From Pseudomonadales bacterium (GTDB lineage: Bacteria > Pseudomonadota > Gammaproteobacteria > Pseudomonadales > Pseudohongiellaceae), in contig JAJDYJ010000029.1 in the NCBI GenBank assembly GCA_022822865.1, forward strand, positions 26,440 to 90,439: a stretch of 64,000 nucleotides of DNA, given 5' to 3'. The first letter of the stretch is position 1. Each line of letters begins with the position of its first letter. The notes below the pieces were generated by a model. The model had not been told where the DNA came from. It worked only from the letters and a program-made list of their open reading frames with translations, and ran no database searches. Below, piece by piece: positions 7,813 to 40,904 of this stretch. The position numbers were made by a program, and so were the translations under genes.

Positions 7813-7892
7813 GAAATTCGCTCCGCCGTGGAATGATGATAGCCGCTATGCAGCCACGCTGAAAATGGGAAAATCGAGCCAGGACGGGAATA

Positions 7893-22093: not shown

Positions 22094-22518
22094 AAGTGGA
22101 ATTCCTTCTTGTTGGTCACGCCGCCGGCGCCGCGCAATTCGCGCAATTCTCGCCGCTGGATATCGGTACGCCAATCCAGCGCGCCCACGCGCCAGAGATA
22201 GAACAGCGCCGCAAGCAATATGACGATGAAAACGGCGATTTCGATAAAGCCGACCCATCCGGTCTCGCGCACGGAAACCGCCCAGGCGAACAGGAAAACG
22301 ACCTCGAGATCGAAAATGATGAACAGGATCGCCGGCAGATAGAAATGCACGGCGGTGCGGAATTGCGCCGAACCGACGGAAACGATGCCTGACTCGAAAG
22401 GCGTATCGGTGTATTTGCGGGAGGCGCTCTGCCCGAGAAAATACGACAGGCCGAGCATGAGGCCGACTATCGCCAGCACGGCGGCGGCGTAAAAGAAAAA
22501 AGGTGCTAGATCGCTCAT
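22090..22518 (-). CDS. nuoA: NADH-quinone oxidoreductase subunit A
   Basis: Track ORF 22090..22569, trimmed to [19 protein letters not shown] (ATG 22516-22518). 142 aa with three TM helices and [11 protein letters not shown]. Confidence 0.9.
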
Positions 22519-22545
22519 GAATGACGGCGCCGAAATCGGTCCGGG

Positions 22546-22574
22546 AATGTACACGGAACGGCCGTTCAAGGCAA
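22546..22574 (-). promoter_or_regulatory. weak sigma70-like promoter candidate upstream of nuoA
   Basis: The minus strand reads TTGCCT, a 17-nt spacer, then TACATT. It ends about 28 nt upstream of the nuoA ATG. This rests on hexamer match only. Confidence 0.25.
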
Positions 22575-22616
22575 GCGACTTGTACCGGGCTGCCCCGGTT
22601 GCGGTTACACCCCGGA

Positions 22617-22946
22617 TCAGTTCGGCACGTAGATTATCTCGCCGGATTCGAGCTGGTACGCGGTACCGACCGGGCGGCCCCGCTCGCCTGTCTGTTGCCG
22701 GGATTCTTCTGCCGTATAGGCGCGGATTTCCTCCCCTTCCCTGATGATGATCTCCATGTCTTCCTCGCCGGGATTCTTGACCAGGGTGAACTCTTCGCTG
22801 AACAGCAGTTCTCCGAGTTCGAGGTGGCTGATCAGAGCCGCCATCAGCGCCACGGAGAAAACCATGGCGATATCGAACAGGTTGACGAGCGAACTCAATG
22901 GGTCGAGTTCGTCGCTGTCGGCAAGAAAGGTCTCGTATCGCTTCAT
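22617..22946 (-). CDS. DUF2149-like single-pass membrane protein (topology resembles ExbD/TolR)
   Basis: 109 aa. A short N-terminus is followed by one TM helix with an embedded Asp ([20 protein letters not shown]) and a soluble roughly 70-aa C-terminal domain. Its ATG overlaps the stop of the ExbB-like gene (ATGA). Confidence 0.8.
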
Positions 22947-23557
22947 GATCGTTCCGCCTCCGACTCGGTCTTGTATTGCAGCACGAACTCCAGCCGATGC
23001 ATGCCCTGGGCGAAACGCCGCTTGCGCGACTGATGCAGGACGAAGCCGATGCTGCCGATCACGATGCCGAGCACCGTGGTCGAAAAGGCGACTTGCATGT
23101 TCTGGGTCAGGCTGGCCATATCTCCCGCCGCGAGGCCCGCGAGCGCCGGGCCCATGGGGATCAGCGTGCCGATCAGCCCGAGGCTGGGACCGAGACGGAT
23201 CAGCAGCCGCGGGAAAGAGAGCTGATTATCGCCGTGCAGGGCAAAATCTCCGAGCTGTCGTTCGCGCACCGAGCGCTTCGTCATGTCGTCCATGACCGTG
23301 AGCATGTGTCTGCTCAGCGGCGAGGCGTAGCTGCCCGCGCATTCCACGAGCCGCGCCTTGTAATCGGCAAATTCTCCGGCGACAAGCCGGCCTTCCGCGG
23401 CGTCGAGCGCCTTGAGAAGGCTCAGGTCCTGCTGGCGTTGCTGCCAGTCCTGCCCGAGCAGCAGCAGCGCGCGCACGAGCAGATAGAGCAGCAAGGCGAT
23501 GCACGGAACGAGCAGGCCCGTGCTCACCCAGGTAAGCGTGGAGAAAAAACTCAGCAT
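22943..23557 (-). CDS. MotA/TolQ/ExbB-family proton channel protein
   Basis: 204 aa with three TM helices and the family motif LGPSLGLIGTLIPMGPAL...AFSTTVLGIVIG. It starts 1 nt after the upstream stop. Confidence 0.82.
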   Translation of the reverse strand: MLSFFSTLTWVSTGLLVPCIALLLYLLVRALLLLGQDWQQRQQDLSLLKALDAAEGRLVAGEFADYKARLVECAGSYASPLSRHMLTVMDDMTKRSVRERQLGDFALHGDNQLSFPRLLIRLGPSLGLIGTLIPMGPALAGLAAGDMASLTQNMQVAFSTTVLGIVIGSIGFVLHQSRKRRFAQGMHRLEFVLQYKTESEAERS

Positions 23558-23558
23558 G

Positions 23559-24257
23559 TCAGGCTCGAGACCTCGCCCTGGCGCCTCTGTCGCGCAGATT
23601 TTGCCACGAATAACCGGCGATTATCAGGACGAGCAGGATGCCGGGTGCCTGCACGGCGCTTGCCAACGTGATCCACTCGTAGCCCTGGAAGTAGCCGGCC
23701 CAACTCGTGTCCGTCGCGTACAGCCATTGCAGGATCAGCAGCAGGCAGGCGAGAAAGCGCGCGGCCGGCAGCCTGCGGGCGAGATTGATCCGTCCCAGTG
23801 CGAAGATCAGCCCGGGCAGCGCGAGCAGCAGGGCCGCGGCGTAGAGCATGCCGAGCCGCGAAAATTCGATGCCCAGCGCCTTATAGAACAGCAACAGTTG
23901 CAGGCTCAGCGCTGCCGGCAGCAACAACAGCAGGGCGCCGTACATCCGCCCATGCAGCAGCAGGCCGAGCGCCTGCAGGCTCAGCGCCACGCCGATCGGT
24001 CTTGACCAGAATTCGAGTGCTGCCAGCCAGACGGTCACGCTCTGACCGCTCAGCCACTTTGACAGCCACAGCGCCGCGCAAGCGAGCGTCGCCGGAACCA
24101 GCGCAAGGCCGAGTCCCAGCGCCACGGGCGGCGGGCAGTAGCGCTGCACCAGCGCGTTGCGGCCGAAAAACGACTGCCGCTGAGACGGCCAGGCGAGCAA
24201 GGCGCAGCAGCAGCCGAGTCCCAGGCTCAGCGCCCACCAGGACGCGGCTTCGCTCAT
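23559..24257 (-). CDS. polytopic (about 6-7 TM) membrane protein of unknown function
   Basis: Track ORF 23559..24293, with the start at MSEAASWWALSLGL. The ATG at 24255-24257 overlaps the CobN-like stop (ATGA). It is Leu/Ala-rich and I recognise no motif. Confidence 0.65.
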   Translation of the reverse strand: MSEAASWWALSLGLGCCCALLAWPSQRQSFFGRNALVQRYCPPPVALGLGLALVPATLACAALWLSKWLSGQSVTVWLAALEFWSRPIGVALSLQALGLLLHGRMYGALLLLLPAALSLQLLLFYKALGIEFSRLGMLYAAALLLALPGLIFALGRINLARRLPAARFLACLLLILQWLYATDTSWAGYFQGYEWITLASAVQAPGILLVLIIAGYSWQNLRDRGARARSRA

Positions 24258-27200
24258 GCCCGCCAGGCGGCCGCCGGCCGCGACCGCCGCCAACGTGCTA
24301 TTGCCAGCAGCGCCGTCAGCGCAAGGCCGATGCCGAGCAGGATCATCGCCAGGTTACGGCCTGCCACGGCCGGCGGCTGAGCGGCTTCGTTGCGCGTCGT
24401 CAATTCCGCCTCAGTGGGCTGTTCCCCGTTTTCTGCCTGCACATCCTGTTCGCGTAACACGAGTTCCGTACTCTGCTCGACCGAGCCGACTTCCGCCGCT
24501 TCGATCTGCTGCTGGTAGCTGGCAAGCAAGGTCGGGTCCAGACGCGCCGCAATGAAGTCCTGCAATGCCGCGTTGCCGCAAGTAAAACTGCCGCAGCCGG
24601 CTTCGAAACGGCTCACGAGGTCGGCGTGCAAATCGGCCAGCGCCTGCAATTGCGCGGCGTCCGGGGTCCAGAAATCCTTGCGGGCGGCTTCGAGCATTAC
24701 TCCGGTGACTTCCTGCAGGGCGTAGGGATTTTCGGTTTCGAAAAAGTCATTGAGGCCCAGGGCGTGCTTGTCGTCGATCAGCGTCTCGAAGACCTGGTTC
24801 CAGAATCCCGGCGCGATGGCGGCGGGTTTCATGGTGTTCCAGCCGAAGGAGTTGCGCAGGGTCTCGGCCATCACTTCGGCACTCGACGCCTCTCCGGCCG
24901 TAAGACCTTCCAGGTAGCGCGGATTGAACAGCGTGGTCCTGGCTTCCTGGGCGATCGCGCTTTGCAGCGTTTCCATCTTCGCCCGATTCGGATTGCGGTA
25001 ATCGGAGAAATACGCCTCCGCGTCCTTGCCGGTGACCGAACGCACCGCCAGGCTCAGGCCGCCCATGAATTCGTAGACGTGATCGAGGCTGAGACCGCCC
25101 CAGGTGTTGCTCGACCTCGGCTGGATGACCACGTCGGTATTGAGCAGCGCGGCGGTAAACAGTTCCGGCACGAACTCGCCCCATTCGCCGGATTCGCCGT
25201 ACATGGCGCCCATGTTGTAGAGATACTGGCTGGCGACATCGGCATCGGACTCCCAAGTGTCGCCCTGCTCCACCATGCCCATGATCTGCGTGCCATAGGA
25301 GCCGTTGACGCCGCCGAAACTCCTGCGCGTCGACAGCCGCCGCGCCTCAGCCGGCGGCAGGCCCTGATCGAGCAGGTGCTGTTCGGCGAGGCGTACGCCG
25401 TCGCGGACGAAGTTTTCGTCTTGATCGGCCGCCAGCGCCGCCATTTCCACCGCGCGGTTGATCAGCGCCAGCCGGGACGCGGCAAGATCGCGCAACTGGC
25501 CCGCGCTTTGCACCACGACGTCGATGCGCGGTCGTCCGAGTTCTTCGGCGGGAATAAGCTCAAGCAACTGTACTTGCCCGTTAGGCGCCCATACCGGGGC
25601 GACGCCAAGCAGGTACATCACTTGCGCGACCGTGGCGCCCTGGGAATGGATGAACTCACTCGGCCAGAGCGTGAAACTGACCTTGTTCGGCAGGCGGCCG
25701 TGGCGTTCCCGGTAATCGCGCAGCATGTCGTCGGCGAGCGCCTTGCCGACTTCCCAGGCGGCCTGGGAAGGCGTCTGCTCGGCGTCGATCGAATACATGT
25801 TGCGCCCGGTCGGCAGTGCGTCGGCATTGAGCAACGGGTCGCCGCCCGAGGCCGGCGAGACGTAGCCGCCGGAGACGGCGTTGCCAAGCGCGACTTTCTG
25901 GTCGGCGCCGCCGGCGAGCAGCAGGTCGGTGTAATTGTCGTACAGCGAAAGCGCCTCAAGCAGGCCAGGTTCGTAATCGAAGGCCAGCGAATCGACGAGC
26001 CCGCCCGGCGTCGCGCCCTCGTTCAGTTCGGCGAACAGCGCTTCCCCGCCTGAAGTCGCTTGCACGGATTCGGGCAACAGATTGTTGACCGAATCGATCA
26101 GCATCAGTTCGGCCGTCAGCGCGGCGTCCGCGTCGGCCCATGTTTCGCCCCAGGTGTACAGGCCCTTGTTGATGCTCGCCTGGGCGAGATCGTCAATGTA
26201 CAACTCGAGTTTCGGCAGCACGTCATCGTCCCAGCCCGGAGCGTCGGCCAGGTCGGTTTCAAGATCGACGTGCAGCTCGATTTCGGTCGCCAGTTCGATG
26301 ATCAGCCGGCGCTGCTCCTCGCGCACCTGGCCCTCTGTGAGGCGGTAATCGTCGAGCCAGCGCCCCAGCGTGGCGAGTTCGGAATACAGGCCGGCGCGCT
26401 GGAACGGCGGCGTCAGGTGGTTGATGATCGTGGCGTAAGAGCGCCGCTTGGCGATGATCGCCTCGCCGACGTTGCTCATCGTGTAAATGTAGAAATGCGG
26501 CGTGTTGCCGATCAGGGCGTCCGCCCAGTCATTGGACGACAGCGCGACCTGCTTGCCCTGGGTGAATTCGAGACTGCCGTGGGTGCCGTAATGGACGATG
26601 GCGTCGGCGCCGAAGCCCAGCCGCATCCAGAGATAGGCAGCCACGTAGCTGTGCGGCGGCGCCTCGCCCGTGCCGTGCACCATGCGGAAATTGTCTTCGC
26701 CGAAGCCCGCCAGCGGCTGCGGCATCAGCGCGACGTTGCCGAACTCGAGCCGCGGCACGGCGATGCGGCTTTCGTCTGCCGGCGGCGTGTCGACGAGGAA
26801 TCTGCCGAGGTTGCCGCCGTGGCGCTCGTCGACCCGGGCGCAAACACCCGCCGCGAGCTCTTCCCGGCACCACTGCCGGTACTCGCCGGCAGTCACCCAG
26901 GCGGGGTTCTGTTCTTCGAGAAAGCGCCGCGCCTGGCCCATGCCGTCGGGCGTCAACACCGGGCCTTCGACGTCGAGCCGGGCGCGGAACGCGGCGTAAT
27001 CGTCCGGCAAATCGCCGAGGTCGTAGCCCTGCTCCTTGAGCATGTGCAGGGTATTGAACAGCGACGGGCTGACTTCCAGCCCGCCGGCAACGAGCGCGTT
27101 CTTGCCGGGGCCGCGGAAATAGACGATGCCGATGCGCTTTTCGGCGTTGGCCGTGCGCTTCAGCCCAATCCAGCGATCGACCATTTCGACATATTCGTCG

Positions 27201-28222
27201 AGCCGTTCAGGAATTGCCTCGAAAATGCGGAAGCCGCGCTCGTCAGCGAATTGCGCATTGACGACCCGCGGTGCGACGCCGCCGTCGAGTTCGGGCAGCA
27301 CGACGTTCATGGTCAGCATGCCGCCCGCATATCCCTGCGAGTCTTCGAGCCATTCCCGGTGTTCCTCGAAAACCGACAGCGGCGTCAGCAGCGGCACCTG
27401 GTTCTCGGTGAACCAGTTGGCCACGGCGTTTTCCCGGCCGAAATTGAAACGCCCGTGGGGCATGAGCACCACCGCGTCGGGATTGACCTCGGCGACCAGC
27501 GCGAGCCGCTCGGCCTGGCCGTTGATAGGATACACGCGCATGCCCGCGCCTTCGAAGGCCTCGATCATCGCGTTGAGATGGTCGCGGTTGGCGTTGAACG
27601 GTCCAGGCACCGTGGTGATCAGCGCAATCTTGTAGCCGTCGGGATTGTAGTTCGGCACGGTTTCGTAGAAACGCTGGTAATCCTCCACCGTGGTGAACAC
27701 TTCGTCGCCGAGGTAGAACAGCACGTCGGTATCGATAAGCAGTGGGTCGCCGGCCTCGGGAGACCGCCAAAGTTTGCCGTCGAGTTCGCGGCGCACGTAG
27801 TACCAGAAATTGCGGTAGTTGTAGTCGCCGCCGTTATCGACGTAGGTTCGCACGAGTTCACTCGCGTCAGGGTTGAGGCTCGTGAGTTGCACGTGGTTGG
27901 GATTGGTGGGACTGTCGATGAAAATCGCGCTGCCGGATTGCACGGCTTCGTCGATCCAGGCCAGTTGTTCGCCGTCCAGCGCGAGACCGCGGCCGAAGAT
28001 CATCACGAAGTCGAAATCCCGCGCGCGCTCGAGCGCCCCGACTTCGAGGCGCTCGAAACGGAACTGCGGCATGTCGGCTACAGCCTTGATGACGCGGCTG
28101 GCGGTGAAATCCGCGAAACTGACCAGTGCGACGCGCGTCGGCGCTGCATAGCGCTGATATGAGAAGAACAGAGCCAGCGCGAACGTCGTGAATATCAAGG
28201 CAGGGACGGAGAATCTTTTCAT
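24254..28222 (-). CDS. CobN/Mg-chelatase-family protein with N-terminal signal or anchor and C-terminal TM anchor
   Basis: 1322 aa. CobN hallmark IVHYGTHGSLEFTQGKQV. The N-terminus is MKRFSVPALIFTTFALALFF. The C-terminus is LAMILLGIGLALTALLAIARWRRSR. A GGAG Shine-Dalgarno (SD) sequence lies 8 nt upstream, and the gene starts 11 nt after the receptor stop. Confidence 0.85.
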   Translation of the reverse strand: MKRFSVPALIFTTFALALFFSYQRYAAPTRVALVSFADFTASRVIKAVADMPQFRFERLEVGALERARDFDFVMIFGRGLALDGEQLAWIDEAVQSGSAIFIDSPTNPNHVQLTSLNPDASELVRTYVDNGGDYNYRNFWYYVRRELDGKLWRSPEAGDPLLIDTDVLFYLGDEVFTTVEDYQRFYETVPNYNPDGYKIALITTVPGPFNANRDHLNAMIEAFEGAGMRVYPINGQAERLALVAEVNPDAVVLMPHGRFNFGRENAVANWFTENQVPLLTPLSVFEEHREWLEDSQGYAGGMLTMNVVLPELDGGVAPRVVNAQFADERGFRIFEAIPERLDEYVEMVDRWIGLKRTANAEKRIGIVYFRGPGKNALVAGGLEVSPSLFNTLHMLKEQGYDLGDLPDDYAAFRARLDVEGPVLTPDGMGQARRFLEEQNPAWVTAGEYRQWCREELAAGVCARVDERHGGNLGRFLVDTPPADESRIAVPRLEFGNVALMPQPLAGFGEDNFRMVHGTGEAPPHSYVAAYLWMRLGFGADAIVHYGTHGSLEFTQGKQVALSSNDWADALIGNTPHFYIYTMSNVGEAIIAKRRSYATIINHLTPPFQRAGLYSELATLGRWLDDYRLTEGQVREEQRRLIIELATEIELHVDLETDLADAPGWDDDVLPKLELYIDDLAQASINKGLYTWGETWADADAALTAELMLIDSVNNLLPESVQATSGGEALFAELNEGATPGGLVDSLAFDYEPGLLEALSLYDNYTDLLLAGGADQKVALGNAVSGGYVSPASGGDPLLNADALPTGRNMYSIDAEQTPSQAAWEVGKALADDMLRDYRERHGRLPNKVSFTLWPSEFIHSQGATVAQVMYLLGVAPVWAPNGQVQLLELIPAEELGRPRIDVVVQSAGQLRDLAASRLALINRAVEMAALAADQDENFVRDGVRLAEQHLLDQGLPPAEARRLSTRRSFGGVNGSYGTQIMGMVEQGDTWESDADVASQYLYNMGAMYGESGEWGEFVPELFTAALLNTDVVIQPRSSNTWGGLSLDHVYEFMGGLSLAVRSVTGKDAEAYFSDYRNPNRAKMETLQSAIAQEARTTLFNPRYLEGLTAGEASSAEVMAETLRNSFGWNTMKPAAIAPGFWNQVFETLIDDKHALGLNDFFETENPYALQEVTGVMLEAARKDFWTPDAAQLQALADLHADLVSRFEAGCGSFTCGNAALQDFIAARLDPTLLASYQQQIEAAEVGSVEQSTELVLREQDVQAENGEQPTEAELTTRNEAAQPPAVAGRNLAMILLGIGLALTALLAIARWRRSRPAAAWRA

Positions 28223-28233
28223 GACGGATGCTC

Positions 28234-30411
28234 CTACATGCCGAATCGATAGCGGGCCGAGACGGAGAAAGTCCTGCCCGGCGCGGCGGCGCCGTCAGGG
28301 TCGTCGCTGATGCCCGACCCCGCCACGAATTGCGGCCAGTACTGTTCGTCGAACAGGTTGTCGATCCTGAAATTCAGGCTGAAGCTGTCGGAGAAGTCGT
28401 AAAAAAGGCTGGCGTCGACGCGCGTGTAGTCAGGCACGACGAAACTGCCCGGTTCGACATCGGTGAACTCGTCCACCAGCAGGGCCTGCAGGTTGGCGCC
28501 GAAGTTGGCGTCGGCGGAGCGGTAGCCGAGTCCGAGAATCGTCTGTCGCGGGCCGACGCTGGTCAGCGGTTCGTCGCTCGAGCGGTTTTCGCCCTCGATG
28601 TCGCCCCAGCTCAGGCTCAGCAGCCATTCGTCCTCGGTGTCCAGCCAGTTGTGCAGGTACAGCTCAGCGTCGATTTCAGCGCCGCTTACTTCCACCTCGC
28701 TCAGATTCCGATACTGAATCTGCGTCACGGAACGGAAACCGGGAATCGGGTTCGGGCGGCTGCCGGAACGCGTGCTCTCGATGAAGTCCTCGTAGTCGGT
28801 GTTGTAAGTCGAGATTTCGAATCTGCCCATCTCGCCGCGCAACCGCAGGCCGACCTCGATGCCGTTGCTCTTTTCCGACTTCAGGTCGGGATTGGCGAGC
28901 ACTTCGTGCGGGAACCAACGGCTCTGGATGAAGGTGTTGATGTACTGCGAAGAAACCGGCGGCGCACGGAATCCGCTGACGTAATTGCCGAACAGGATCA
29001 GGTTTTCGTTCGCTTCCCAGGTCAGGCCGACGCTCGGCGAAACGCTGTCGCTGCTGAATGCGCCGACGCTTATTCCCGTGGGATTCGAATTGAAATACAA
29101 CTCATCCGGCTGGGGATCGTTCTCGAAGTAGTCGTAGCGCAATCCCAGCGTGATCCGCAGCCGGTCTTCCGCGAGTCTCAACTCGTCCTGGACGAAAACG
29201 CCAAGCAGGTCGGTATCGCTGGAAGGATAACTCTTGAGCGGGTAAACGACGCCGTTGCGCGCCGGATCGACTACGCCGGTGTCCGGATAGAAATCCCGAT
29301 AATAGTTGAGGCGTTCGGCGGACTTGCGCACGAAATCGACCCCGGCCAGCAATTCGTGGTTCGAGAATTCCTCGCCGATCAGTAAACTGGCCGAGACCAG
29401 ATCCTGGTCGATGTCGACCTCTTCCATGTCGATTACATTCTCGCCGCCACGGGTCACGCTTTCCTCGAATTCGTCTTCGTCGATGCGCCCCTGCTGCAGG
29501 TCGACTTGCCAGTCGAGGCGGTCCAGCCCCATGACGTCCGTCAGGTTCTGGTAGAAACCGATGCGCCAGCGATGGCTCCGGTCCTGCTCGTAGTGGTCGG
29601 TAACCGAAGTTCCGGAGGGGAGGGCAGAGTTGTAACTGACGTCCACGCTACGGCGCCAGAAATCCGCCAGGACGCCATACTCGTTGTCGGAGGCGCCGTC
29701 GTTCTCCCACTTCAGCAGCACGTTTTCCTGGTTGCCGTCGAAGGGATGATTCTTGTAGTCGCCGTAAATCTCCGTTTCGGAGAATTGCCGCGTGGAAACC
29801 TGTAGCAGGTACGCCCCGCCGAGTGCTGCGCCGGCGCCGCTGAATGTCTGCCGGAAGCCATCGTTGACCTGGTCGTAGCCGCCGCCTACTTCGAATACCG
29901 AATCGTTGCCGCCGCCGAGCATCTGCCGCGGCGAAATCGTGTTCAGCAACACCACGCCGGCGAGGGCGTCGCTGCCGTAAAGTGCGGATGACGGCCCCTT
30001 GAGGAACTGGATGTTGTTCATCGAATAAGGTTCGAAACTGTTGCGGCCGTTGGAGACGCCGGCGGAACCGAAGCCGTCCGGCAATCGCGTGCCGTCGATC
30101 AGCATCACCACACGGTTGCCCGACAGGCCGCGGATGACGAAGGTGCCGTTGCCGCGCCGGTCGCTGGACTGATCGATACTGATGGCCGGCTGATAGCGGA
30201 CCAGGTCCGCCAGACTGTTCGGCTGCAATTCCTGTATATCCTGCTCGTCCAGCACTTCCAGGCTTGCCGGCGTGCTCCAGAGGGAGGTTTCCTTTCGCTG
30301 CACCTGGACAACGATTTCTTCGACTTGTTCTTGCGCGACCGCAAGTTCCGCGCTCGTAAAGGCGCAAACCGCCAAAGGAATGGTCCAACCATACTTTCGC
30401 TTGAAACTCAT
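28234..30411 (-). CDS. TonB-dependent outer-membrane receptor (receptor 2)
   Basis: Track ORF 28234..30564, trimmed to MSFKRKYGWTIPLAVCAFTSAELAVAQ (ATG 30409-30411). Signal peptide, TonB-box-like EEIVVQV, plug motif IRGLSGNRVVMLIDG...LKGPSSALYGSDALAGVV, and a beta-barrel C-terminus. Confidence 0.88.
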   Translation of the reverse strand: MSFKRKYGWTIPLAVCAFTSAELAVAQEQVEEIVVQVQRKETSLWSTPASLEVLDEQDIQELQPNSLADLVRYQPAISIDQSSDRRGNGTFVIRGLSGNRVVMLIDGTRLPDGFGSAGVSNGRNSFEPYSMNNIQFLKGPSSALYGSDALAGVVLLNTISPRQMLGGGNDSVFEVGGGYDQVNDGFRQTFSGAGAALGGAYLLQVSTRQFSETEIYGDYKNHPFDGNQENVLLKWENDGASDNEYGVLADFWRRSVDVSYNSALPSGTSVTDHYEQDRSHRWRIGFYQNLTDVMGLDRLDWQVDLQQGRIDEDEFEESVTRGGENVIDMEEVDIDQDLVSASLLIGEEFSNHELLAGVDFVRKSAERLNYYRDFYPDTGVVDPARNGVVYPLKSYPSSDTDLLGVFVQDELRLAEDRLRITLGLRYDYFENDPQPDELYFNSNPTGISVGAFSSDSVSPSVGLTWEANENLILFGNYVSGFRAPPVSSQYINTFIQSRWFPHEVLANPDLKSEKSNGIEVGLRLRGEMGRFEISTYNTDYEDFIESTRSGSRPNPIPGFRSVTQIQYRNLSEVEVSGAEIDAELYLHNWLDTEDEWLLSLSWGDIEGENRSSDEPLTSVGPRQTILGLGYRSADANFGANLQALLVDEFTDVEPGSFVVPDYTRVDASLFYDFSDSFSLNFRIDNLFDEQYWPQFVAGSGISDDPDGAAAPGRTFSVSARYRFGM

Positions 30412-30600
30412 GAGATAGTTACCTGACTTGTTCTTTCGCTTGCCGGTCAATGCGGGAAAACCGCGGGAAGTTCTGGCAAGCCAGTTCCCCTGGACCGAAT
30501 CTTTTACTGCCAACCGGCAGGAACGTTCAGAACGCCTGCAAGTGAACGTACGCCGCCGCGTCAAAGACGCGGACGATCGTGCCGGTTGGGAATTTGTCAG
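30412..30600 (-). promoter_or_regulatory. 189-nt structured leader between the small ORF and receptor 2 (candidate riboswitch; cobalamin-like motifs)
   Basis: The minus strand contains the hairpins CCGCGTC-TTT-GACGCGG and CTGCC-GGTT-GGCAG. It also contains GGGGAAC..AGAACTTCC..CGCGGTTTTCCCGCATTGACC..GAAAG..AAGTCAGGTAAC, which resembles the cobalamin riboswitch core and B12 box. Not verified with a covariance model. Confidence 0.3.
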
Positions 30601-30882
30601 TTAACCGCGGGGTGGAGAGCGGGACCGCGCCGTGGGGACTTCGACCGACTGGGGAGTCAGCGAGGCGCGGGTGTAGTTTTTGTCAGCCGGGAGTGGATTC
30701 GAATCGGATTCCCGGGATTGCGTGAAATCGTCGTCCTGGCCGAACTTGAGGCAGATTTCACATTCGAAATGTTCGCCTGGCTCACCGTCATGACTGTGAG
30801 CCGTATCGGAGTTCAGCGCGAAAACCAGCAACAGGGAAAGCACGGCCATCGAATTGAGATGGCCAGCCAGGACTTTCCTCAT
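30601..30882 (-). CDS. small secreted His/Cys protein (DUF2946-like, from memory)
   Basis: 93 aa from MRKVLAGHLNSMAVLSLLLVFALNSDTAHS (an alternative ATG at 30903 adds 7 aa). The mature part reads HDGEPGEHFECEICLKF...ARSRSPPRG. CxxC plus a C-terminal R-x-PP is what I recall for DUF2946. Confidence 0.6.
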   Translation of the reverse strand: MRKVLAGHLNSMAVLSLLLVFALNSDTAHSHDGEPGEHFECEICLKFGQDDDFTQSRESDSNPLPADKNYTRASLTPQSVEVPTARSRSPPRG

Positions 30883-30946
30883 GCCTGCTATTGAAATTCG
30901 CATTGCAATCCGCTTTTTCGTCCGTGCTTCGTGCAACAACCGGCTG

Positions 30947-30975
30947 AGTATCCGAACTGGCCCGCGCCTTGTCAA
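30947..30975 (-). promoter_or_regulatory. sigma70-type promoter candidate for the small ORF / receptor 2 / CobN-like operon
   Basis: The minus strand reads TTGACA (30970-30975), a 17-nt spacer, then GATACT (30947-30952). It sits in the 130-bp gap after the MerC-like gene. Confidence 0.5.
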
Positions 30976-31034
30976 GTTGACGCGTTGCCGTTTAAGCCCT
31001 GGAGGACCAATTGGAAACGCCTGCGCGCGCCTGA

Positions 31035-31478
31035 TCAGTGCGTCGTTTGTTCGTCGAGTTCCGACATGCCTTGCCGAGACACGTCCGTGGAATGGCAATC
31101 GTGTTGCCGGCAAAGCCAGAAATTGCGTACATGCGCATAAGCGATAATCGTTGCGCCGGCAACGGTGAGAATCTTCTCGCCGGTCTCTCCCGTCACGTCT
31201 TCCCCCAGTATCGGCACGAGGAAAAGTACGAAGAGACCGAGCAGCCCCGTTATTAGAATCTTGAAATGACCATGCTTGCGACAGCCGAGGCTCAAGGCGA
31301 AGAGACTGGTAGGGAGCACGAGAAAGAGAACCGCGTAGTGGAAGCTTTCGTCTTCCAGAAAAGTCGCTCCCAGCGCCGGAATCATGGCGATGGCCACCGG
31401 CGTGAGCAGGCAATGGACCACGCAAACCAGCGATAGGCCTATAGCCGCCTTATCCGCATTTGCCGACGATGCCTGCAC
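31035..31478 (-). CDS. MerC-like four-TM membrane protein with Cys/His motifs
   Basis: Track ORF 31035..31499. I prefer the GTG at 31476-31478, which is preceded by AGGAGA. Motifs: LVCVVHCLLTP, GCRKHGH, and the C-terminal FWLCRQHDCH. Confidence 0.65.
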   Translation of the reverse strand: MQASSANADKAAIGLSLVCVVHCLLTPVAIAMIPALGATFLEDESFHYAVLFLVLPTSLFALSLGCRKHGHFKILITGLLGLFVLFLVPILGEDVTGETGEKILTVAGATIIAYAHVRNFWLCRQHDCHSTDVSRQGMSELDEQTTH

Positions 31479-31495
31479 TATTGTTCTCCTGACAA

Positions 31496-32926
31496 TCAAC
31501 TGTTGATGGGGCTCGCCGACCGCAGCCGCCGGTTCACAAGCAGCATCATACCAATGGAGAGCAACAACAGGAACATCATCGGCGCCATGCCGCGAGCCAA
31601 TCTTGCGAAGAGCGCTTCGCCTTCGAAGCTGAACTCCGGGATAGTCTGGTAAAACCCGGAATCGATCGGCTGTTTGGCGACGATGTTCGGGCCGACCAGT
31701 TCCGCATACCCCGCCTTGAATTGCCGCGCCTGGGTCAGGTAGTCCTGGTGCCGCCGGGCCGACGTTCCGGCCAGTTCCACAAACAGGCTATTGGCCGCAA
31801 TGGCCGGAGATACGAAACGGAAAAGTCCGATTGCGTTTTCGCGGCTCCTCAGCGCCTCTTCAAAGGAATCCACGATGGGCCGTGTCGCCTCGTCCACTGT
31901 CGAGGTCACCAGGAAAGAGGAAAGCACGAAAGCCGGAATCTGCGATTCCTGATCGACCAGCAGTTCCGGATGGTCAAGCATGAACTGGTTGGCCACATCG
32001 GCCTCCTGGAGCCGGGTTTCGTTTTCGACTTCCCTCGCATCGGCCAGAAAGGCCAGGCGCGACGGCGTCGGATAGAGCGCCTCCGCCGTCGCGCTGGTGG
32101 CCGCGGGAATGACCAGGGTGAGCCCGGCCCACAAGCCCAGCAGCGCCAGCAAATTGAATTCGCCGCTCCTGTTGTAGCTGGCGATCCAGGCGATCAGCAT
32201 CAACCAGAAGAACCCGTAAAGAAGTACGAGCAGCGACCAGAATCCGAACGCCGGCAAACGCGCACCGGGACTTGCTTCGCCCGACCCGGACGCCAGCGCA
32301 ATCAGCGCGGCGGCAAAGGTCACGAACAATACGATGCCCGCGCGAAACAGCAGGCGCTGCCAGAACAAGTTCCTGACGCTCGCACCCTGCGCTACCGCAA
32401 GACCCAGCCTCCCGGCGTCGCGGTCGGCGGCGATCACGTCGAAACAGAAAACGATCAGCAGCAGCGGCAGGAACAGGATTACCGCCTTGCTGATGTCGAA
32501 ACTGCCGAGCGCCAATGAAACCGGATCCGCGATTTCATACCTTGAGAACAATCGTATGTCCGGGTCCCATAGCGAAATCTCGCCGGCAAAGGGCAACAGA
32601 TCCGATTGGCCGACGGCGAAATCAGCCAGCGGCTCCTGGGGCAGTGACGACGCGAACACCACATCCATGGCCGAGCCTGTCGCGGGCGGCACTTCCGCCG
32701 CGCTACCGAGTCTTTCGAGTTCGCGCAAATCGTCCAGCCAGCCGGCCATCGCCTGTTCGATTTCGGAGTTATGGCCAGCGATGGCCGCGGCGCGTTCATC
32801 GTGCTCCGTCCTGCCCGCCTGCCCGCCGTAAATCAGCACCGAGGCAAACGCCAGCAGCAACAGGAGCGAAGAGACGCGCTGAAACTGCATCTTCCACTCG
32901 CAAGCGACGAGATCCGTCATACGCAT
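31496..32926 (-). CDS. ABC-2-type permease, DUF3526-like (module 2, second permease)
   Basis: 476 aa: an N-terminal TM, a periplasmic segment, a TM bundle (AVILFLPLLLIVF...), a roughly 170-aa soluble insert, and a terminal TM. Confidence 0.7.
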   Translation of the reverse strand: MRMTDLVACEWKMQFQRVSSLLLLLAFASVLIYGGQAGRTEHDERAAAIAGHNSEIEQAMAGWLDDLRELERLGSAAEVPPATGSAMDVVFASSLPQEPLADFAVGQSDLLPFAGEISLWDPDIRLFSRYEIADPVSLALGSFDISKAVILFLPLLLIVFCFDVIAADRDAGRLGLAVAQGASVRNLFWQRLLFRAGIVLFVTFAAALIALASGSGEASPGARLPAFGFWSLLVLLYGFFWLMLIAWIASYNRSGEFNLLALLGLWAGLTLVIPAATSATAEALYPTPSRLAFLADAREVENETRLQEADVANQFMLDHPELLVDQESQIPAFVLSSFLVTSTVDEATRPIVDSFEEALRSRENAIGLFRFVSPAIAANSLFVELAGTSARRHQDYLTQARQFKAGYAELVGPNIVAKQPIDSGFYQTIPEFSFEGEALFARLARGMAPMMFLLLLSIGMMLLVNRRLRSASPINS

Positions 32927-32935
32927 GAGCGAACC

Positions 32936-34375
32936 TCACACTCGGGTTCGATCGGCGCCGAACCAGAACATGGCCGCCATGGCGGCCAGACCCCAGAACA
33001 GCAATATCGTCAGATCCCGGGCGCTCTCGCTCCAGGCCGTGGCAACGGAAGGCGGCCGGTAGTCGAACTCCGGCACCGTTTCCCAGAATTCGGGAGGCGA
33101 CAGGTAACCGAAACTCTCACCGGCGCCATTGAGCATCATGTCCTCGTTCATCGCTCGCACGATATCGTTGCGCTGGCGCTCCGCTTCCAGCGAAAAGTGT
33201 TCATGGGCGCCGATGTCGGTGCCCGAGTAAGCGCGTGAAAGATGTTGCAATGCGATCGTCGGGGAGAGAACGGAGAGCATTCGGCGCAGGTTCTTCTGTT
33301 TTTCGTAGTTGGCGAAGAGTTCGGCGTAAGCCGCGTTGTAGGCTTCCTGATCGATCACCTCGCTCACTTCCAGGCGCAGCGCACCGCGGTTTATCTCCAG
33401 GTCATCCAGTTCGTCCACGCGCAATTCCCTGCCTAACGCGCGTTCGACCACTTCCCGCTCCACGGCGACGTAGTCTTCACTCTCGCTCGGCGGCCGATTG
33501 GCCTGCAGGCTGGCCCGGGTGTCTTCCCAGAACGTTGCCGAGTCCGGGCTTGGATATACCTGTTCGGCAATACTTGCCGACAGCCGCGGCAATCCGACGA
33601 CGGTCACGACCCAGATCCCCAGCAAGAGCAGCAAGGCCGTTCTGGCCTCGGCAACCAGCATGGATACCAGCAGCGTGACGGCGGTCAGGCACACGATGTA
33701 AAGCCCATACACGAAAAGCAGCGAGAGACCGCGCAGGACCAGATCGCCGCCCGAAAAGCCCGATTCCGACAGCGACAGCAAGGAAAACGACGTCGATATC
33801 GCAACAGCGGCGGCCAGCACGGCGAAAGCCACCCCGGCAATTACGATGAATTTCCCAAGCAGCAGGTGAATCGGACTGGCGCCCGAACCGACCAGTTGCC
33901 GCAAGGTGCCGCGTTCACGCTCGCCGGCGATGCTGCCGTAGCCCATGAGCACTACCAGCAATGGCAGGATGAGCGTCAATACTCCCGCGATACTGAAATT
34001 TTCCAGCCTGCTGAGTTCAGGGGCATCCTCCGCTGCGCGAAACATGGCTGGGTTGCGTGAATGCGCCTCAAGCCAGATGACCTGCCCCATGAAAGAAGAA
34101 ACGCCGGGGTCGAAGGAAGCCAGGGGGGCCACCGGCTTATGGGCCATGCGGCTGAAATGCGCGGCGGAGTGCGGGTTTTTTTCACCCTGTTCCAGGAACA
34201 CCGCGGAATCGTCGGCCTGGGCCTGCAGGACTTCCCGCTCTCTCGCATTCTCGGTTGCAAGACCGGTAGTCAATCCAAGCACGAGCAGCAGCCCGACGAT
34301 GCCCAGCAAGCCCAGGGCCCTGCCGTCGCGCCTTATCTCTGTCAACTCTTTACCGATTATTGCGCCAATCATCAC
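32936..34375 (-). CDS. ABC-2-type permease, DUF3526-like (module 2, first permease)
   Basis: 479 aa. It is a paralog of 36362..37804 (NPHSAAHFSRMAHKPVAPLASFDPGV versus HPHRMVHYGHYVFRTPPPLAMIDPGV; both carry ERE..TL..L). The start overlaps the ATPase stop. Confidence 0.72.
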   Translation of the reverse strand: MMIGAIIGKELTEIRRDGRALGLLGIVGLLLVLGLTTGLATENAREREVLQAQADDSAVFLEQGEKNPHSAAHFSRMAHKPVAPLASFDPGVSSFMGQVIWLEAHSRNPAMFRAAEDAPELSRLENFSIAGVLTLILPLLVVLMGYGSIAGERERGTLRQLVGSGASPIHLLLGKFIVIAGVAFAVLAAAVAISTSFSLLSLSESGFSGGDLVLRGLSLLFVYGLYIVCLTAVTLLVSMLVAEARTALLLLLGIWVVTVVGLPRLSASIAEQVYPSPDSATFWEDTRASLQANRPPSESEDYVAVEREVVERALGRELRVDELDDLEINRGALRLEVSEVIDQEAYNAAYAELFANYEKQKNLRRMLSVLSPTIALQHLSRAYSGTDIGAHEHFSLEAERQRNDIVRAMNEDMMLNGAGESFGYLSPPEFWETVPEFDYRPPSVATAWSESARDLTILLFWGLAAMAAMFWFGADRTRV

Positions 34376-35118
34376 TACGCCTCCTCGGTGGTCTCATCAA
34401 CGGTTTCGTCGTCGTGCATGTGATTGAGGTAGACCTGTTCGAGCGCTGCCTGGTCCAGGGATTCGGGGGAGAGTTCTTCCACCAGGGTCCCGGATTTCAT
34501 GATGCCGATGCGGTCGGCGAGTTCCCTGGCCCGGAACAGGTCATGGGTCGCCATCAGCACCGCCGCGCCGTTATCGGCAAGCTGTCGCAGCAGCCGGCAA
34601 AATTCGTTCGCGGCGCTGGGGTCCAGGCCGGACAGCGGTTCGTCGAGCAACAGCGCCCTGGCGCCTTTGGCGAGCGCGATCGCGAGCCCGATCTTCTGCC
34701 GCATGCCCTTGGAATACGCGCCGACTTTCTGATCCGCGGCGCCCTGATCCAGCCCAACCTGATCGAGCAGTCCGCGGAGATGGCTTTCATCGCGATGCCC
34801 GCCGCCGAGCCTGACGAAATAGTCGAGATTCTCCAGGCCCGTCAAGGCCGGATACAGCGACACCTGCTCGGGCACGTAGCCGAGTTTGCTTCGCGCCCGC
34901 TTCAGGTCGGCGGTCACTTCGGTTCCGTCAACGATGGCGGCGCCCGAAGTCGGTTCGAGAAAGCCGAGAAAAAGGTTTATCGTCGTCGTCTTGCCCGCGC
35001 CGTTGGCGCCGAGCAGGCAGACGATCTCCTTCTCGTTTACCGAAAGATTCAAGCCATTCAGCGCCGTATTCGACCGGAATGACTTGGTCAAATCCCGGGC
35101 GCGAAGCAGTTCACTCAT
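34375..35118 (-). CDS. ABC transporter ATP-binding protein (module 2)
   Basis: 247 aa. Walker A GANGAGKTT, signature YSKGMRQK, Walker B LLLDEP, and an H-loop ATHD. Confidence 0.92.
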   Translation of the reverse strand: MSELLRARDLTKSFRSNTALNGLNLSVNEKEIVCLLGANGAGKTTTINLFLGFLEPTSGAAIVDGTEVTADLKRARSKLGYVPEQVSLYPALTGLENLDYFVRLGGGHRDESHLRGLLDQVGLDQGAADQKVGAYSKGMRQKIGLAIALAKGARALLLDEPLSGLDPSAANEFCRLLRQLADNGAAVLMATHDLFRARELADRIGIMKSGTLVEELSPESLDQAALEQVYLNHMHDDETVDETTEEA

Positions 35119-36365
35119 GATTCATTTCCCTGGAATTGCGGCCGTTGTTCGAGGCTGGCGGTTGAGACAGGCTCCCCGCGAAACAGGCGCGGGTAGTAAT
35201 ACTCTCTCAGCGCCTTGTGGAAAGCGCGCACTCGCTGTTCATAAGCCAGGGTCGCCGCCACATTGGTATCGGCAAGCGCCTGCATTGCGCGCTCGGCCAG
35301 CGCCGGCGGCGACAGCCAGGCAAGCGAACCCACCAATCGGTCCCGCCCGATGCGGCCGTCATGATAAGCCTGCGACAGCGGTTCGACGGTCTGGTCGCCG
35401 ACCTGTTGAAAGGCGTAATACCACTTCCACTCGAATGGCTGGCCGACTTCGGTGTAGTCCGCCCATTCCGGATGACGCTCGATAAAGGGCTCCATCGTTG
35501 CGGCTTTGGGCAGATCCCAGGCGTCGTTGACCGCCTCTCTCTGGGTAAGCAGGATTTCACCGCCGTCCGGCAACGGCACGGCGGCCTCTACCGAGATCTT
35601 GATAGCCGCCGGAACGATCACGGCCAGGGCCAGCCAGGCGCCGACCAGCGCGGTCAGATTGACCGGGCTGGTCCAGCCGTAACGGTCGACCAGGACGCAA
35701 ACGCTCCACCAGAACGCGATATGCAATATCACAACGAGGCTTGCCAAAATCAGGGTCGATGCGCCGGCCCCGCCGGGCAGGCCACCGGCCCAGAGCGGAC
35801 CGATCAGGCATAACGCCAACGCGCCTGTGCGCAAGGCAGCCCGGGCGAACCAGGGGCTCCCCCGGCTCGCCGCGGTCGCGCTGAGCAATTCATAGCGGCC
35901 CGCGGTGCGCTCGGCCGAGCGCAGGTCGTGCAACAGGAGAATCAGCAACAGCGGGGCAAGCAGATTCGCAGCGAAAGCGAAGTCGAAACGGCCGATCAGG
36001 GCGAAGTCCGGGTTTTCCGCGTCTGTCTCGTAAATCTGCCCTTCCAGCGCCAGTGCGCGGATCTGGTGCTTCCAGGGAGAAGTGTCGCGTTGGCCCAGCG
36101 CGGCGAAAGCAAAATCCGACGGCGAATCCCAGGTGAGGTGGAATGTGTAATACGCCACATCGCCCCAGTCCTGGTACAGCGTGTCGAGGACTTCCCGTTC
36201 CGCGTAATCGATTTCGATCAAATCGTTCAGGACCGCGCGTTGCGCGGCGATTTCACGCAGGCCGAGGATTACCGACACACAGGCGACAAGCAGCGCGATT
36301 CCCAGCCAGAGCAAGGCCGCCCGGTCACTCGCAAGAAAGCGGATTTCTCGGATCAGTCCGCTCAT
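35115..36365 (-). CDS. ABC-2-type permease, DUF3526-like (module 1, second permease)
   Basis: 416-aa polytopic protein. It has 4-nt overlaps with both neighbours. Confidence 0.7.
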   Translation of the reverse strand: MSGLIREIRFLASDRAALLWLGIALLVACVSVILGLREIAAQRAVLNDLIEIDYAEREVLDTLYQDWGDVAYYTFHLTWDSPSDFAFAALGQRDTSPWKHQIRALALEGQIYETDAENPDFALIGRFDFAFAANLLAPLLLILLLHDLRSAERTAGRYELLSATAASRGSPWFARAALRTGALALCLIGPLWAGGLPGGAGASTLILASLVVILHIAFWWSVCVLVDRYGWTSPVNLTALVGAWLALAVIVPAAIKISVEAAVPLPDGGEILLTQREAVNDAWDLPKAATMEPFIERHPEWADYTEVGQPFEWKWYYAFQQVGDQTVEPLSQAYHDGRIGRDRLVGSLAWLSPPALAERAMQALADTNVAATLAYEQRVRAFHKALREYYYPRLFRGEPVSTASLEQRPQFQGNES

Positions 36366-37804
36366 GGCTGCATTCTTCGCGCGGCGCGGATGCCGCCTGC
36401 CGTCAACAGCAGCAACCAGGCGGAAAGCATGCCCAGGGGCGCGCCGGCGCGAGCCAGGCGTTGATCGGCGGCAGCGGGCTGGAAGGAAAACTCGTCGAGG
36501 ACGTTCCAGTTTTCGGCTGACATCCGCGTGCGACGATTGGCTTCTTCGTTGAGACTGCGATTGATGTCGTCGGTATAGTCCAGTTGCTCGACATGGACGC
36601 GATTAAGGCCCTGCACGAAATCGAAGCGCACGTCCTCTGCTTCACGCAGAAAACGATGGTGCGTCGCGAGGTCGGTGCCCGATAGTGCGCGGGAGCCCGC
36701 AGAAACCGCCACCACCGGTGAAAGCCAGCCGAAAGATTCGGCAAATCGCGCCTGGCGCACTTCAAGATCCATGCGTTCTTCGGCAAACCGGTTCATCACC
36801 TCGGTCACATCGGCTTCCGCAACTTCGGAGACGACGCCGCGAAAATTGACCGGCAGGTCTTCCACGCGCTCGACATCGTACTGGATCAGCAGATTCGCCC
36901 GAAGCTGCTGAAACTGCGGAGCGCCGGCGTTGTGGCCATCGCCCACTTCCCGCAGTTCCGCCTGCATGCGCAGGTCGGTCTCGATCTTGCCTGGCGCGGG
37001 CACCGCCGAAACGGCGGATTCAACCGCCATGCGCGGAACGATCAGGGCTGAGGCGAGCCAGAACAGCGCCAGAATGCCGAGCGAGAGCGCGCGCGACCGG
37101 ACCATGGCCGATACGAGCAGGATCACGCCGCACCAGACAAACAGATAAAGCGCGTAGAGGCCCATGACGCCAAAACTCGCCAGCAGCGCCTCGCCCCGAA
37201 CGACAGCCGCGGCCGACACCATCGCCAGCGGCAGCAACAGCGCCAGCGTGACTCCCGCCATGGCGACCCATTTGCCCGCGTACAACTCATTTCCCGTCAC
37301 GCCCTGGGCCAGCAGCGGCGCAAGCGTGTTCTCTTCGCGCTCGCGAATGAATACGCCATGGCCGATGGCGATCAGCAGCAGCGGCACGAACAATTGGTAA
37401 ACCAGCGCCGCGGTCAACCCCTGGAAGCCGCCGAGTTCGGCGCCCGACCTCGCATCGGCGAACATTGCCGAGTTTTGCCGGTGGGCTTCCAGAAAAATCG
37501 ATTGCCCGGTGAACGAGTCGACACCGGGGTCGATCATCGCAAGCGGCGGCGGCGTACGGAAAACATAATGCCCGTAATGCACCATTCTGTGTGGATGGCG
37601 GTCCGGCTGGGACAGAAAAGTCTCTTCCGCCAGCGCCTGCTGTTCGGAACGTTCCCGATGTTCTTCGCTCATCCTTAGCGAAGTCGCGATGCTGACGGCT
37701 GCCAGCAACACAGTGAAAATCAGCAAGGTAAATAACGCGAGCCGCGATCTCAGCCACAGCCGCGACTCTTCCCGCGCGATTGAAAGTACTTTGCTCATCG
37801 TCAT
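36362..37804 (-). CDS. ABC-2-type permease, DUF3526-like (module 1, first permease)
   Basis: 480 aa with a His-rich periplasmic motif (RHPHRMVHYGHYVF), a TM bundle and a terminal TM. It has a 4-nt overlap with the ATPase gene. Confidence 0.72.
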   Translation of the reverse strand: MTMSKVLSIAREESRLWLRSRLALFTLLIFTVLLAAVSIATSLRMSEEHRERSEQQALAEETFLSQPDRHPHRMVHYGHYVFRTPPPLAMIDPGVDSFTGQSIFLEAHRQNSAMFADARSGAELGGFQGLTAALVYQLFVPLLLIAIGHGVFIREREENTLAPLLAQGVTGNELYAGKWVAMAGVTLALLLPLAMVSAAAVVRGEALLASFGVMGLYALYLFVWCGVILLVSAMVRSRALSLGILALFWLASALIVPRMAVESAVSAVPAPGKIETDLRMQAELREVGDGHNAGAPQFQQLRANLLIQYDVERVEDLPVNFRGVVSEVAEADVTEVMNRFAEERMDLEVRQARFAESFGWLSPVVAVSAGSRALSGTDLATHHRFLREAEDVRFDFVQGLNRVHVEQLDYTDDINRSLNEEANRRTRMSAENWNVLDEFSFQPAAADQRLARAGAPLGMLSAWLLLLTAGGIRAARRMQP

Positions 37805-38523: not shown

Positions 38524-38570
38524 TTGAACTCCTGAATCAGGGGCGGTACCGCGCGCCTCGCCGGTTTTGG

Positions 38571-38601
38571 TCCATGACGCAACCGTTTGTTGCGCCATGG
38601 A
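38571..38601 (-). other. 13-bp-stem hairpin between receptor 1 and ABC module 1
   Basis: The minus strand reads TCCATGGCGCAAC-AAACG-GTTGCGTCATGGA (one G-U pair). No following U-tract, so this is an intra-operon attenuator or stabiliser candidate rather than a clear terminator. Confidence 0.5.
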
Positions 38602-38611
38602 CTCAGGCCGG

Positions 38612-40813: not shown

Positions 40814-40904
40814 TGGTTGTCTCAATCTGTAAACGTTTGAAATACCGCAAAGTCAGCGGCGCAGAGTGCGCAGACGCTCGCGGTCGTACGAAAATCAAGG
40901 CGTT

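Follow-up and report, generated by a model that had tools for sequence, protein, structure and literature searches.

The closest described relatives of the locus reported here are the hmuYRSTUV operons of Bacteroidota from gut and mouth. In Bacteroides thetaiotaomicron, the membrane-bound protein HmuS takes the iron out of haem, leaving protoporphyrin IX and Fe(II), a reaction that requires NADH, but not ATP, and that is abolished by the exchange H538A (PMC12583661). Soluble HmuS, from which the membrane anchors are absent, still makes protoporphyrin IX, yet stops after one to two turnovers, whereas membranes supplied with NADH convert ∼80% (PMC12583661). When HmuS of Porphyromonas gingivalis was made in E. 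coli, it behaved as a protein of the inner membrane that faces the periplasm (PMC13227078). As for the partner proteins, HmuU and HmuV have been drawn as powering the receptor (PMC12583661), while elsewhere HmuT, HmuU, and HmuV were suggested to act in inner-membrane transport or in a complex with HmuS (PMC12094164, PMC13227078); the published description of HmuV is that of a protein with no known homology. A further described system is PA1922–25 of Pseudomonas aeruginosa, which responds to zinc depletion with a 45- to 150-fold induction, among the strongest in the Zur regulon; import of zinc or cobalt is suspected (PMC4542158, PMC10393844, PMC11761036). The subject of the present analysis is an operon of six co-directional genes behind one promoter (positions 22617–30975, minus strand) on a stretch of 64,000 nucleotides (hereafter the window; GC content ∼61%) from contig JAJDYJ010000029.1 of a Pseudomonadales bacterium (Pseudohongiellaceae), the last five genes of which are assigned here as hmuR-S-T-U-V.

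All six genes are on the minus strand. Behind a small first gene, which is treated further below, the second (28234–30411) encodes a TonB-dependent receptor with Plug and barrel domains (Pfam) and the third (24254–28222) a CobN-like protein of 1,322 amino acids, matched by PF02514 over its full length (E 3e-277). The fourth (23559–24257) encodes a membrane protein of 232 amino acids with ∼6 transmembrane (TM) segments according to hydropathy, for which neither Pfam nor NCBIfam contained a match, the fifth (22943–23557) an ExbB-like protein (PF01618, E 3e-10), and the sixth (22617–22946) a DUF2149 protein of 109 amino acids (PF09919, E 8e-28). The genes PG1552–1556 of P. gingivalis carry the same annotations as these last five (PMC11681262). 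In a search of the PDB, the best match of the CobN-like protein was HmuS of B. thetaiotaomicron (9d26; 1018 bits), to which it is about three times closer, judged by bit score, than to CobN or ChlH (at most 356 bits); all nine CobN/BchH equivalog models of NCBIfam were missed, the top score of 617 bits falling short of the 1248 required. The membrane protein aligned with the open reading frames (ORFs) at the same position in Bacteroidota (hhalign; probability 95.6%, E 1e-8), and the DUF2149 protein is 50–60% identical to Bacteroidota HmuV. Because the gene-by-gene order, the match to HmuS, and the alignment of the membrane protein agree, the last five genes are taken to be hmuR-S-T-U-V, and the operon is, by sequence, a proteobacterial copy and a divergent member of the known hmuRSTUV system. 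A preliminary description of this DNA, made from its letters alone, had assigned the gene families correctly, as borne out by the Pfam and NCBIfam searches, and had likewise correctly read a promoter ahead of six co-directional genes, the spacing of the last four junctions, and hydrophobic anchors at both ends of the CobN-family protein. It had, however, presented the genes as a candidate new system and cited only HmuS and HmuR as relatives, whereas the entire set has its orthologues in hmuR-S-T-U-V, and PA1922–25, going by its published annotation, comprises genes of the same kind.

The catalytic residues of site 2 of HmuS (H538, E577, D1208, and H1209) recur unchanged in the window protein and in every one of 128 relatives, and the His-Gly-Arg motif (HmuS His-254) is present as well. 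Hydrophobic segments span residues 4–22 and 1291–1309, flanking an acidic body of 1,268 residues; the protein starts with MKR and ends in a basic tail, RWRRSRPAAAWRA. According to the positive-inside rule, both ends would be cytoplasmic and the body of the chelatase homologue is predicted to be periplasmic, and the literature on HmuS concurs (PMC13227078, PMC6460266). All full-length relatives listed have both anchors and the basic C-terminal tail. The anchor helices are conserved in hydrophobicity only, not in sequence; a TonB-like polar motif of the SHLS type was looked for in them and was not seen among the relatives compared. By analogy to its Bacteroides homologue, for which de-chelation was demonstrated, the product of 24254–28222 is a probable metalloporphyrin de-chelatase.

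A scan of genomes seeded with DUF2149 returned 80 loci, the majority of which were Bacteroidota hmu operons. Gene order was counted on the 65 loci with enough upstream sequence, a CobN-like gene being scored within 2.5 kb upstream and on the same strand. By this measure, a CobN-like gene preceded DUF2149 in 63/65 loci, an ExbB-like gene was adjacent in 64/65, and the order CobN-like, membrane ORF, ExbB-like, DUF2149 held in 63/65; of 76 loci inspected for the gene in between, 74 had an ORF of ∼150–300 amino acids separating the CobN-like from the ExbB-like gene. The order also occurs in alpha-, beta-, and gammaproteobacteria, the unit being present in Bordetella, Pseudomaricurvus, Glycocaulis, and a metagenome-assembled genome (MAG). 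The nearest genomes are the Gammaproteobacteria MAG SB0675_bin_1, with five hmu-type proteins that are 93–98% identical, and an uncultured Pseudohongiella; in close relatives, the five-gene array is found with different flanking genes. In the Bordetella locus (L084), the receptor gene is divergent relative to S-T-U-V. In another locus (L086:63–12071), two CobN-like paralogues (1,596 and 1,356 amino acids) flank one receptor and are followed by a single T-U-V set.

A partner of the AAA+ or vWA type, as used by the class I chelatases, was not found in the 64 kb. A six-frame scan of the window for Walker-A motifs yielded only Mfd and two ABC ATPases, and Pfam searches with ∼44 window ORFs, a set without the majority of the nuo genes and several short ORFs, detected no ChlI, ChlD, CobS, CobT, vWA, TonB, or ExbD; cob genes were likewise not found in the 64 kb. 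No AAA+ or vWA partner was annotated in six related loci, and a seventh contained just a faint VWA_2 match, 4.7 kb away and on the opposite strand. With that, several further propositions of the preliminary description have held up, namely that the 64 kb contain no AAA+/vWA partner (most nuo genes being outside the Pfam scan) and that the body of the chelatase is periplasmic (predicted from hydropathy and the positive-inside rule, in line with the HmuS literature). Its check on whether these genes stay together in other genomes also came out in its favor. Its proposal that a metal chelate is taken up and stripped of (or supplied with) its metal outside the cytoplasm is supported, in the direction of removal, by homology, because removal was demonstrated for HmuS of B. 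thetaiotaomicron (PMC12583661).

The receptor scored above the curated cut-offs of two models, TIGR01786 (342 vs. 323.75) and TIGR01785 (327 vs. 316.85), and belongs, as judged by these models, to the haem/haemoglobin receptor family; within the operon, it occupies the position of HmuR. It is not an HmuR orthologue, the similarity amounting to ∼25–30% identity over short stretches of ∼120–190 residues. Similarity to BtuB models was partial (119 vs. a cut-off of 600), and the ZnuD model gave 43 bits (cut-off 950). The receptor contains GFRAPP...FPHEVLANPDL, including its His, which is conserved in the proteobacterial relatives. This stretch may correspond to the FRAP and NPNL boxes, with a His in between, of HemR and ShuA, and haem binding by it would be putative.

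The remaining three proteins may form a module driven by the proton gradient. The ExbB-like protein has the classical layout of ExbB, with three TM segments (15–33, 126–144, and 156–174) and a large cytoplasmic loop; against the PDB, it matched MotA weakly across the channel helices. The DUF2149 protein consists of one N-terminal TM helix followed by a small, beta-rich periplasmic domain of ∼70 residues, and Asp-25 in its helix is invariant within NLFD[VI]AMVF (15 sequences). A single-pass helix with a conserved Asp is the hallmark of stator subunits of the ExbD/TolR/MotB type. Modeling contributed little: the AlphaFold2 model of the DUF2149 protein was poor (predicted local distance difference test, pLDDT, 61.5; 15 sequences), with Foldseek returning nothing from the PDB below E 0.4, and that of the HmuT-like protein, for which the homologue search gave 6 close relatives, had a pLDDT of 58. 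DUF2149 also occurs in archaea (arCOG03208), where it is annotated as “linked to TolQ”.

Several loci show members of the module in other company. On a contig of Verrucomicrobiota (L083:179–5710), a divergent receptor, an Ig-domain (He_PIG) protein of 449 amino acids, a 238-amino-acid ORF without Pfam match, an ExbB-like, and a DUF2149 gene are found, and no CobN-like gene; because an Ig-domain protein stands there in its place, T-U-V can apparently partner another periplasmic protein. On a Prevotella contig (L063), U-V lies behind alaS, with no CobN-like gene nearby. In a Prevotellaceae MAG (L011:7166–8498), DUF2149 follows by 7 nucleotides (nt) the gene for a CbiK-type class II chelatase (PF06180, E 9e-75), with neither a CobN-like nor an ExbB-like gene near DUF2149. 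This is a single case, but it sets a second, unrelated chelatase family beside DUF2149. In ANME-1 (Methanophagales; L088:1–8366 and L089:463–8366), DUF2149 overlaps by 4 nt with the 3′ end of the gene of a giant CARDB/DUF2341 surface protein (2,513–4,607 amino acids), in the last 500 residues of which no MotA/ExbB domain was detected.

Taken together, we regard it as moderately probable that the locus belongs to the Hmu type, with a gene for a small, exported protein that binds metal added to hmuR-S-T-U-V, and that it imports and de-chelates a metallated tetrapyrrole, with T, U, and V energizing transport. The haem-family receptor would import the metallated tetrapyrrole, which by homology may be haem, with zinc or another metal porphyrin as a serious alternative. 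On the periplasmic face of the inner membrane, the HmuS-like protein, anchored by a helix at each end, would then strip the metal at the His/Glu and Asp/His site without ATP or an AAA+ partner, and the freed metal ion would enter through an ordinary inner-membrane transporter. HmuT, HmuU (ExbB-like), and HmuV (DUF2149) would form an inner-membrane module running on the proton gradient. Its most likely job would be to energize the transport of the operon, either by gating of the receptor, by passage through HmuT, or both; the main alternative would be that it drives the de-chelatase directly and mechanically. What this organism imports, as well as every role of T, U, and V, is inferred.

A number of observations weigh against this interpretation, in particular against haem as the source of iron. 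Of the three features by which Nath et al. defined HmuS, two are missing: Arg replaces Met-79, a haem ligand of site 1, and there is no Met-rich insertion. The exchange is shared with 113 of 128 relatives (Met in 14), placing the window protein, by sequence, in a larger, mostly non-Bacteroidota branch. The insertion comprises ∼120 residues in the HmuS family (Nath et al. 2025, PMC12583661), and the segment is 215–219 amino acids long with 16–24 Met in HmuS of Odoribacter and Butyricimonas, but only 75 with a single Met in the window protein. Neither a Fur box was found in the window nor, at up to 3 mismatches, a Zur box (best upstream score 9/19). Rfam gave no element at gathering thresholds across the 64 kb, and with E up to 10 neither a cobalamin riboswitch nor any other match within 30300–31100. 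Several orthologous operons in alpha-, beta-, and gammaproteobacteria carry boxes of the Zur type, not of the Fur type, just upstream, and PA1922–25 responds to zinc, not to iron (PMC4542158). Considering the lack of a Fur box here, the Zur boxes of the sister operons, the zinc response of PA1922–25, and the His-rich, CxxC-containing product of the first gene, haem iron may not be the target. The stator reading of the module is burdened as well: DUF2149 gave no match to ExbD in Pfam (E up to 10) or in a PDB profile search, and its alignment with E. coli ExbD and TolR (hhalign) was confined to the TM helix (probability 5.8%). A TonB gene was found neither in the window nor in the annotated relatives. 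The present data fit energization of the receptor and energization of the chelatase alike.

In the Bacteroides loci L013, L015, L023, and L025 (∼4600–8800), DUF2149 is accompanied by a shorter CobN-like protein of ∼1,300–1,340 amino acids with Arg at the position of Met-79 and Met at that of His-254. These represent a second type in Bacteroidota, perhaps of the BtuS1 kind.

Energization of the chelatase is possible, but rather unlikely. HmuU and HmuV would then be a proton-driven stator that mechanically drives the doubly anchored HmuS-like protein, possibly via HmuT, in place of an AAA+ motor, with the stroke serving either removal of the metal or release of the product. S-T-U-V are translationally coupled (ATGA, 1 nt, ATGA) and nearly always adjacent, while the receptor gene can be divergent, as in Bordetella. 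DUF2149 occurs in archaea, organisms without an outer membrane (arCOG03208 and the ANME-1 locus), its periplasmic domain is not recognizable as the TonB-handling domain of ExbD, and in the Prevotellaceae MAG, it comes straight after an unrelated chelatase. The gain from 1–2 turnovers of soluble HmuS to ∼80% conversion by membranes with NADH (PMC12583661) also points this way, as NADH-respiring membranes could build up a proton gradient, too. However, the soluble protein lacking anchors and motor does perform the chemistry (PMC12583661), and the anchor helices, although hydrophobic, are not conserved in sequence, unlike the helix of TonB or TolA. Moreover, T-U-V (with a receptor and an Ig-domain protein) and U-V exist without a CobN-like gene, and published models place HmuU and HmuV in receptor energization or inner-membrane transport. 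Proton-motive powering of the chelatase is put forward as a hypothesis only.

The link to zinc emerges from the sequences preceding the orthologous operons. Zur-type boxes are found in Pseudomaricurvus (L085:5658–5676; 18/19), in a Colwellia MAG (L042:1131–1149; 17/19), in a gammaproteobacterial MAG with a CobN-like protein 72% identical to that of the window (L003:7296–7314 and L006:2030–2048; 16/19), in Glycocaulis (L087:5630–5675; two palindromes), and in Bordetella (L084:7897–7920; 14/19). These boxes, together with PA1922–25, tie the proteobacterial branch to zinc rather than to iron limitation. If so, a combined version might be considered in which the ExbB-like/DUF2149 stator drives the anchored chelatase homologue and, at the same time, the proteobacterial machine, deployed when zinc is limiting, takes zinc (or cobalt) out of metalloporphyrins that have been imported, instead of iron out of haem; we think this improbable. 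The same is the case for zinc (or cobalt) acquisition of the PA1922–25 type, in which the receptor would import the free or weakly bound divalent metal and the CobN-like protein would be a periplasmic binder that hands it on; we doubt it quite strongly. Besides the Zur-type boxes and the 45- to 150-fold induction upon zinc depletion (PMC4542158, PMC10393844, PMC11761036), it would account for the lack of Met-79 and of the Met-rich insertion, and for the small protein with its His-rich stretch (with a longer tract in L005), its CxxC, and its weak similarity to DUF2946. Against it stand the lack of a Zur box in the window and in its closest relatives (L001, L002, L004, and L005), the haem-family receptor with its score far below the cut-off of ZnuD, and the de-chelation site of HmuS, which is invariant as a whole and therefore hard to square with a simple metal carrier.

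Salvage of corrinoids or cobalamin, with the receptor importing a corrinoid and the CobN-like protein inserting or removing cobalt, is very improbable. The older SEED name “BtuS” and the database label “cobaltochelatase CobN” for the relatives suggest it, the receptor is partly similar to BtuB models, and a B12-box has been discussed for the hmu locus of P. gingivalis (PMC11681262); no cobalamin riboswitch was found between 30300 and 31100 (Rfam, E up to 10), however, the BtuB score is far from its cut-off, and the CobN-like protein falls below every CobN equivalog cut-off and is closer to HmuS. That the protein is instead a standard CobN, working in the cytoplasm in aerobic B12 synthesis and encoded beside unrelated membrane genes by chance, is what automatic annotation implies and the full-length match to PF02514 would allow, but it can practically be dismissed, being contradicted by the TM anchors at both ends with their positive-inside topology, by the lack of CobS, CobT, or other cob genes in the 64 kb, by the scores below the equivalog cut-offs, and by the conservation of the gene set as a unit across phyla.

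Returning to the favored interpretation, an Hmu-type importer and de-chelatase, the first gene (30601–30903, minus strand) encodes its small exported protein of 100 amino acids. Its N-terminus is signal-like, with a single hydrophobic segment (residues 11–29), and its His-rich stretch varies in length, reaching HSHDDHGNHDDHDHH in L005; both CxxC and the C-terminal RSRSPP are invariant. The protein is probably metal-binding. Four relatives have the ORF as well, with a conserved start codon, and similarity to DUF2946 is weak (3/5 members match, best E 0.0017). The gene sits where that of the hemophore HmuY is located in Bacteroidota, but the products are unrelated; it is confined to the window's own clade and not present in the relatives with Zur boxes. 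In the gap ahead of it lies a σ70-like promoter, TTGACA-17-GATACT (30947–30975, minus strand). It is the only such match within 22300–31600, where shuffled sequences give 1.6 ± 1.5, and the count by itself is at chance level. Its placement 5′ of the first gene and the conservation of −35, spacer, and −10 in three relatives (L001, L004, and L005) nevertheless make it credible as a promoter. As these comparisons indicate, the small gene and a promoter close to consensus were acquired by the window's own clade in place of a Zur box.

Transcription is predicted to start near 30939, and the 5′-untranslated region between promoter and small ORF measures only ∼40 nt. Directly 3′ of this ORF, a stem-loop can be read from the sequence, GTCCGCGTC-TTT-GACGCGGC (30555–30574, minus strand), the helix of which is retained in relatives with some two-sided changes; it is possibly an attenuator or an element of mRNA stability. 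Of the structured leader that had been proposed, this conserved hairpin stands; the rest does not, given the short untranslated region, the lack of an Rfam family, and the closest relative, L004 (L004:2440–2536 vs. window 30411–30601), in which ∼100 nt of the 190-nt spacer are deleted and just the first hairpin and the ribosome-binding region are retained. A riboswitch or other known RNA in the leader, considered on its own, was rejected for the lack of an Rfam match and the deleted middle of the spacer. The last four junctions of the operon, by direct reading, are TAG-11 nt-ATG, ATGA, TGA-C-ATG, and ATGA, with the start of the HmuT-like gene overlapping the stop of the HmuS-like one and the start of DUF2149 overlapping the stop of the ExbB-like gene.

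Downstream of the DUF2149 gene follows the nuo operon, nuoA first. Upstream and co-directional (31035–40825, minus strand) are genes for MerC, two sets of an ABC ATPase with two DUF3526 permeases, and a siderophore-type TonB-dependent receptor. In the relative L003, one ABC ATPase and two DUF3526 permeases come immediately after DUF2149, and the recurrence of this set near the operon suggests that the two may be linked in function. Three clustered tRNA genes (51241–51554, minus strand) bear no relation to the operon.

What these comparisons add to the picture of the Hmu machinery is, first, its range. It reaches beyond Bacteroidota, and the branch without Met-79 and the Met-rich insertion occurs widely, in Proteobacteria as well as in further phyla, and includes 113 of the 128 closest relatives. 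Second, two literatures without mutual citation are joined, that on the haem de-chelatase HmuS of gut anaerobes and that on the Zur-regulated PA1922–25 of P. aeruginosa, leading to the idea that such operons may serve, when zinc is limiting, to take the metal out of metalloporphyrins brought into the cell envelope. Third, HmuV, which had been described without homology, carries the hallmark of a stator subunit (an invariant Asp in its helix and an ExbB-like neighbor) and occurs in archaea. The link to Zur and the stator-like nature of HmuV are the most useful new leads; if a stator did drive the chelatase, the class I superfamily would have a second, ATP-free mode of powering.

How the operon stands among the known systems can be stated for each of its parts. 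With ExbB-ExbD-TonB and TolQ-TolR-TolA, it shares a three-TM protein of the MotA/ExbB family, the gene of which overlaps the one for a single-pass protein whose helix carries an Asp that looks essential; unlike in those systems, the DUF2149 domain is not detectably ExbD-like, the cluster is without a TonB or TolA gene, and a third member, HmuT with six TM segments, is present. With CobNST and ChlH/I/D, it shares the homologous large subunit (PF02514), the central His/Glu and Asp/His positions of which are found throughout the superfamily. Those enzymes are cytoplasmic, soluble, dependent on ATP and AAA+ partners, and metal-inserting, whereas the window protein is membrane-anchored, predicted to be periplasmic, without an AAA+ partner, and, by homology, would work in the direction of removal.

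With PA1922–PA1925, the operon has in common a proteobacterial host and, following the published annotation, a receptor, a CobN-like, an ExbB-like, and a DUF2149 protein; PA1922–PA1925 belongs to the Zur regulon, and boxes of the Zur type precede operons related to that of the window. The window operon differs in lacking such a box, in starting with an extra small gene, and in having an HmuT-like gene annotated. From the hmuYRSTUV operons of Bacteroidota, it is set apart by its gammaproteobacterial host, a His-rich CxxC protein in place of the hemophore HmuY, Arg for Met-79, a segment of 75 rather than ∼215 amino acids, a non-orthologous receptor, and no evident regulation of the iron type. 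The likeness is nevertheless closest here (HmuS of B. thetaiotaomicron, 9d26; PG1551–1556 of P. gingivalis; BtuS2 of B. fragilis): the order of receptor, doubly anchored CobN-like protein, polytopic protein, ExbB-like protein, and DUF2149 is identical, the site-2 residues and the His-Gly-Arg motif are kept, DUF2149 is 50–60% identical, and both do without an AAA+ partner.

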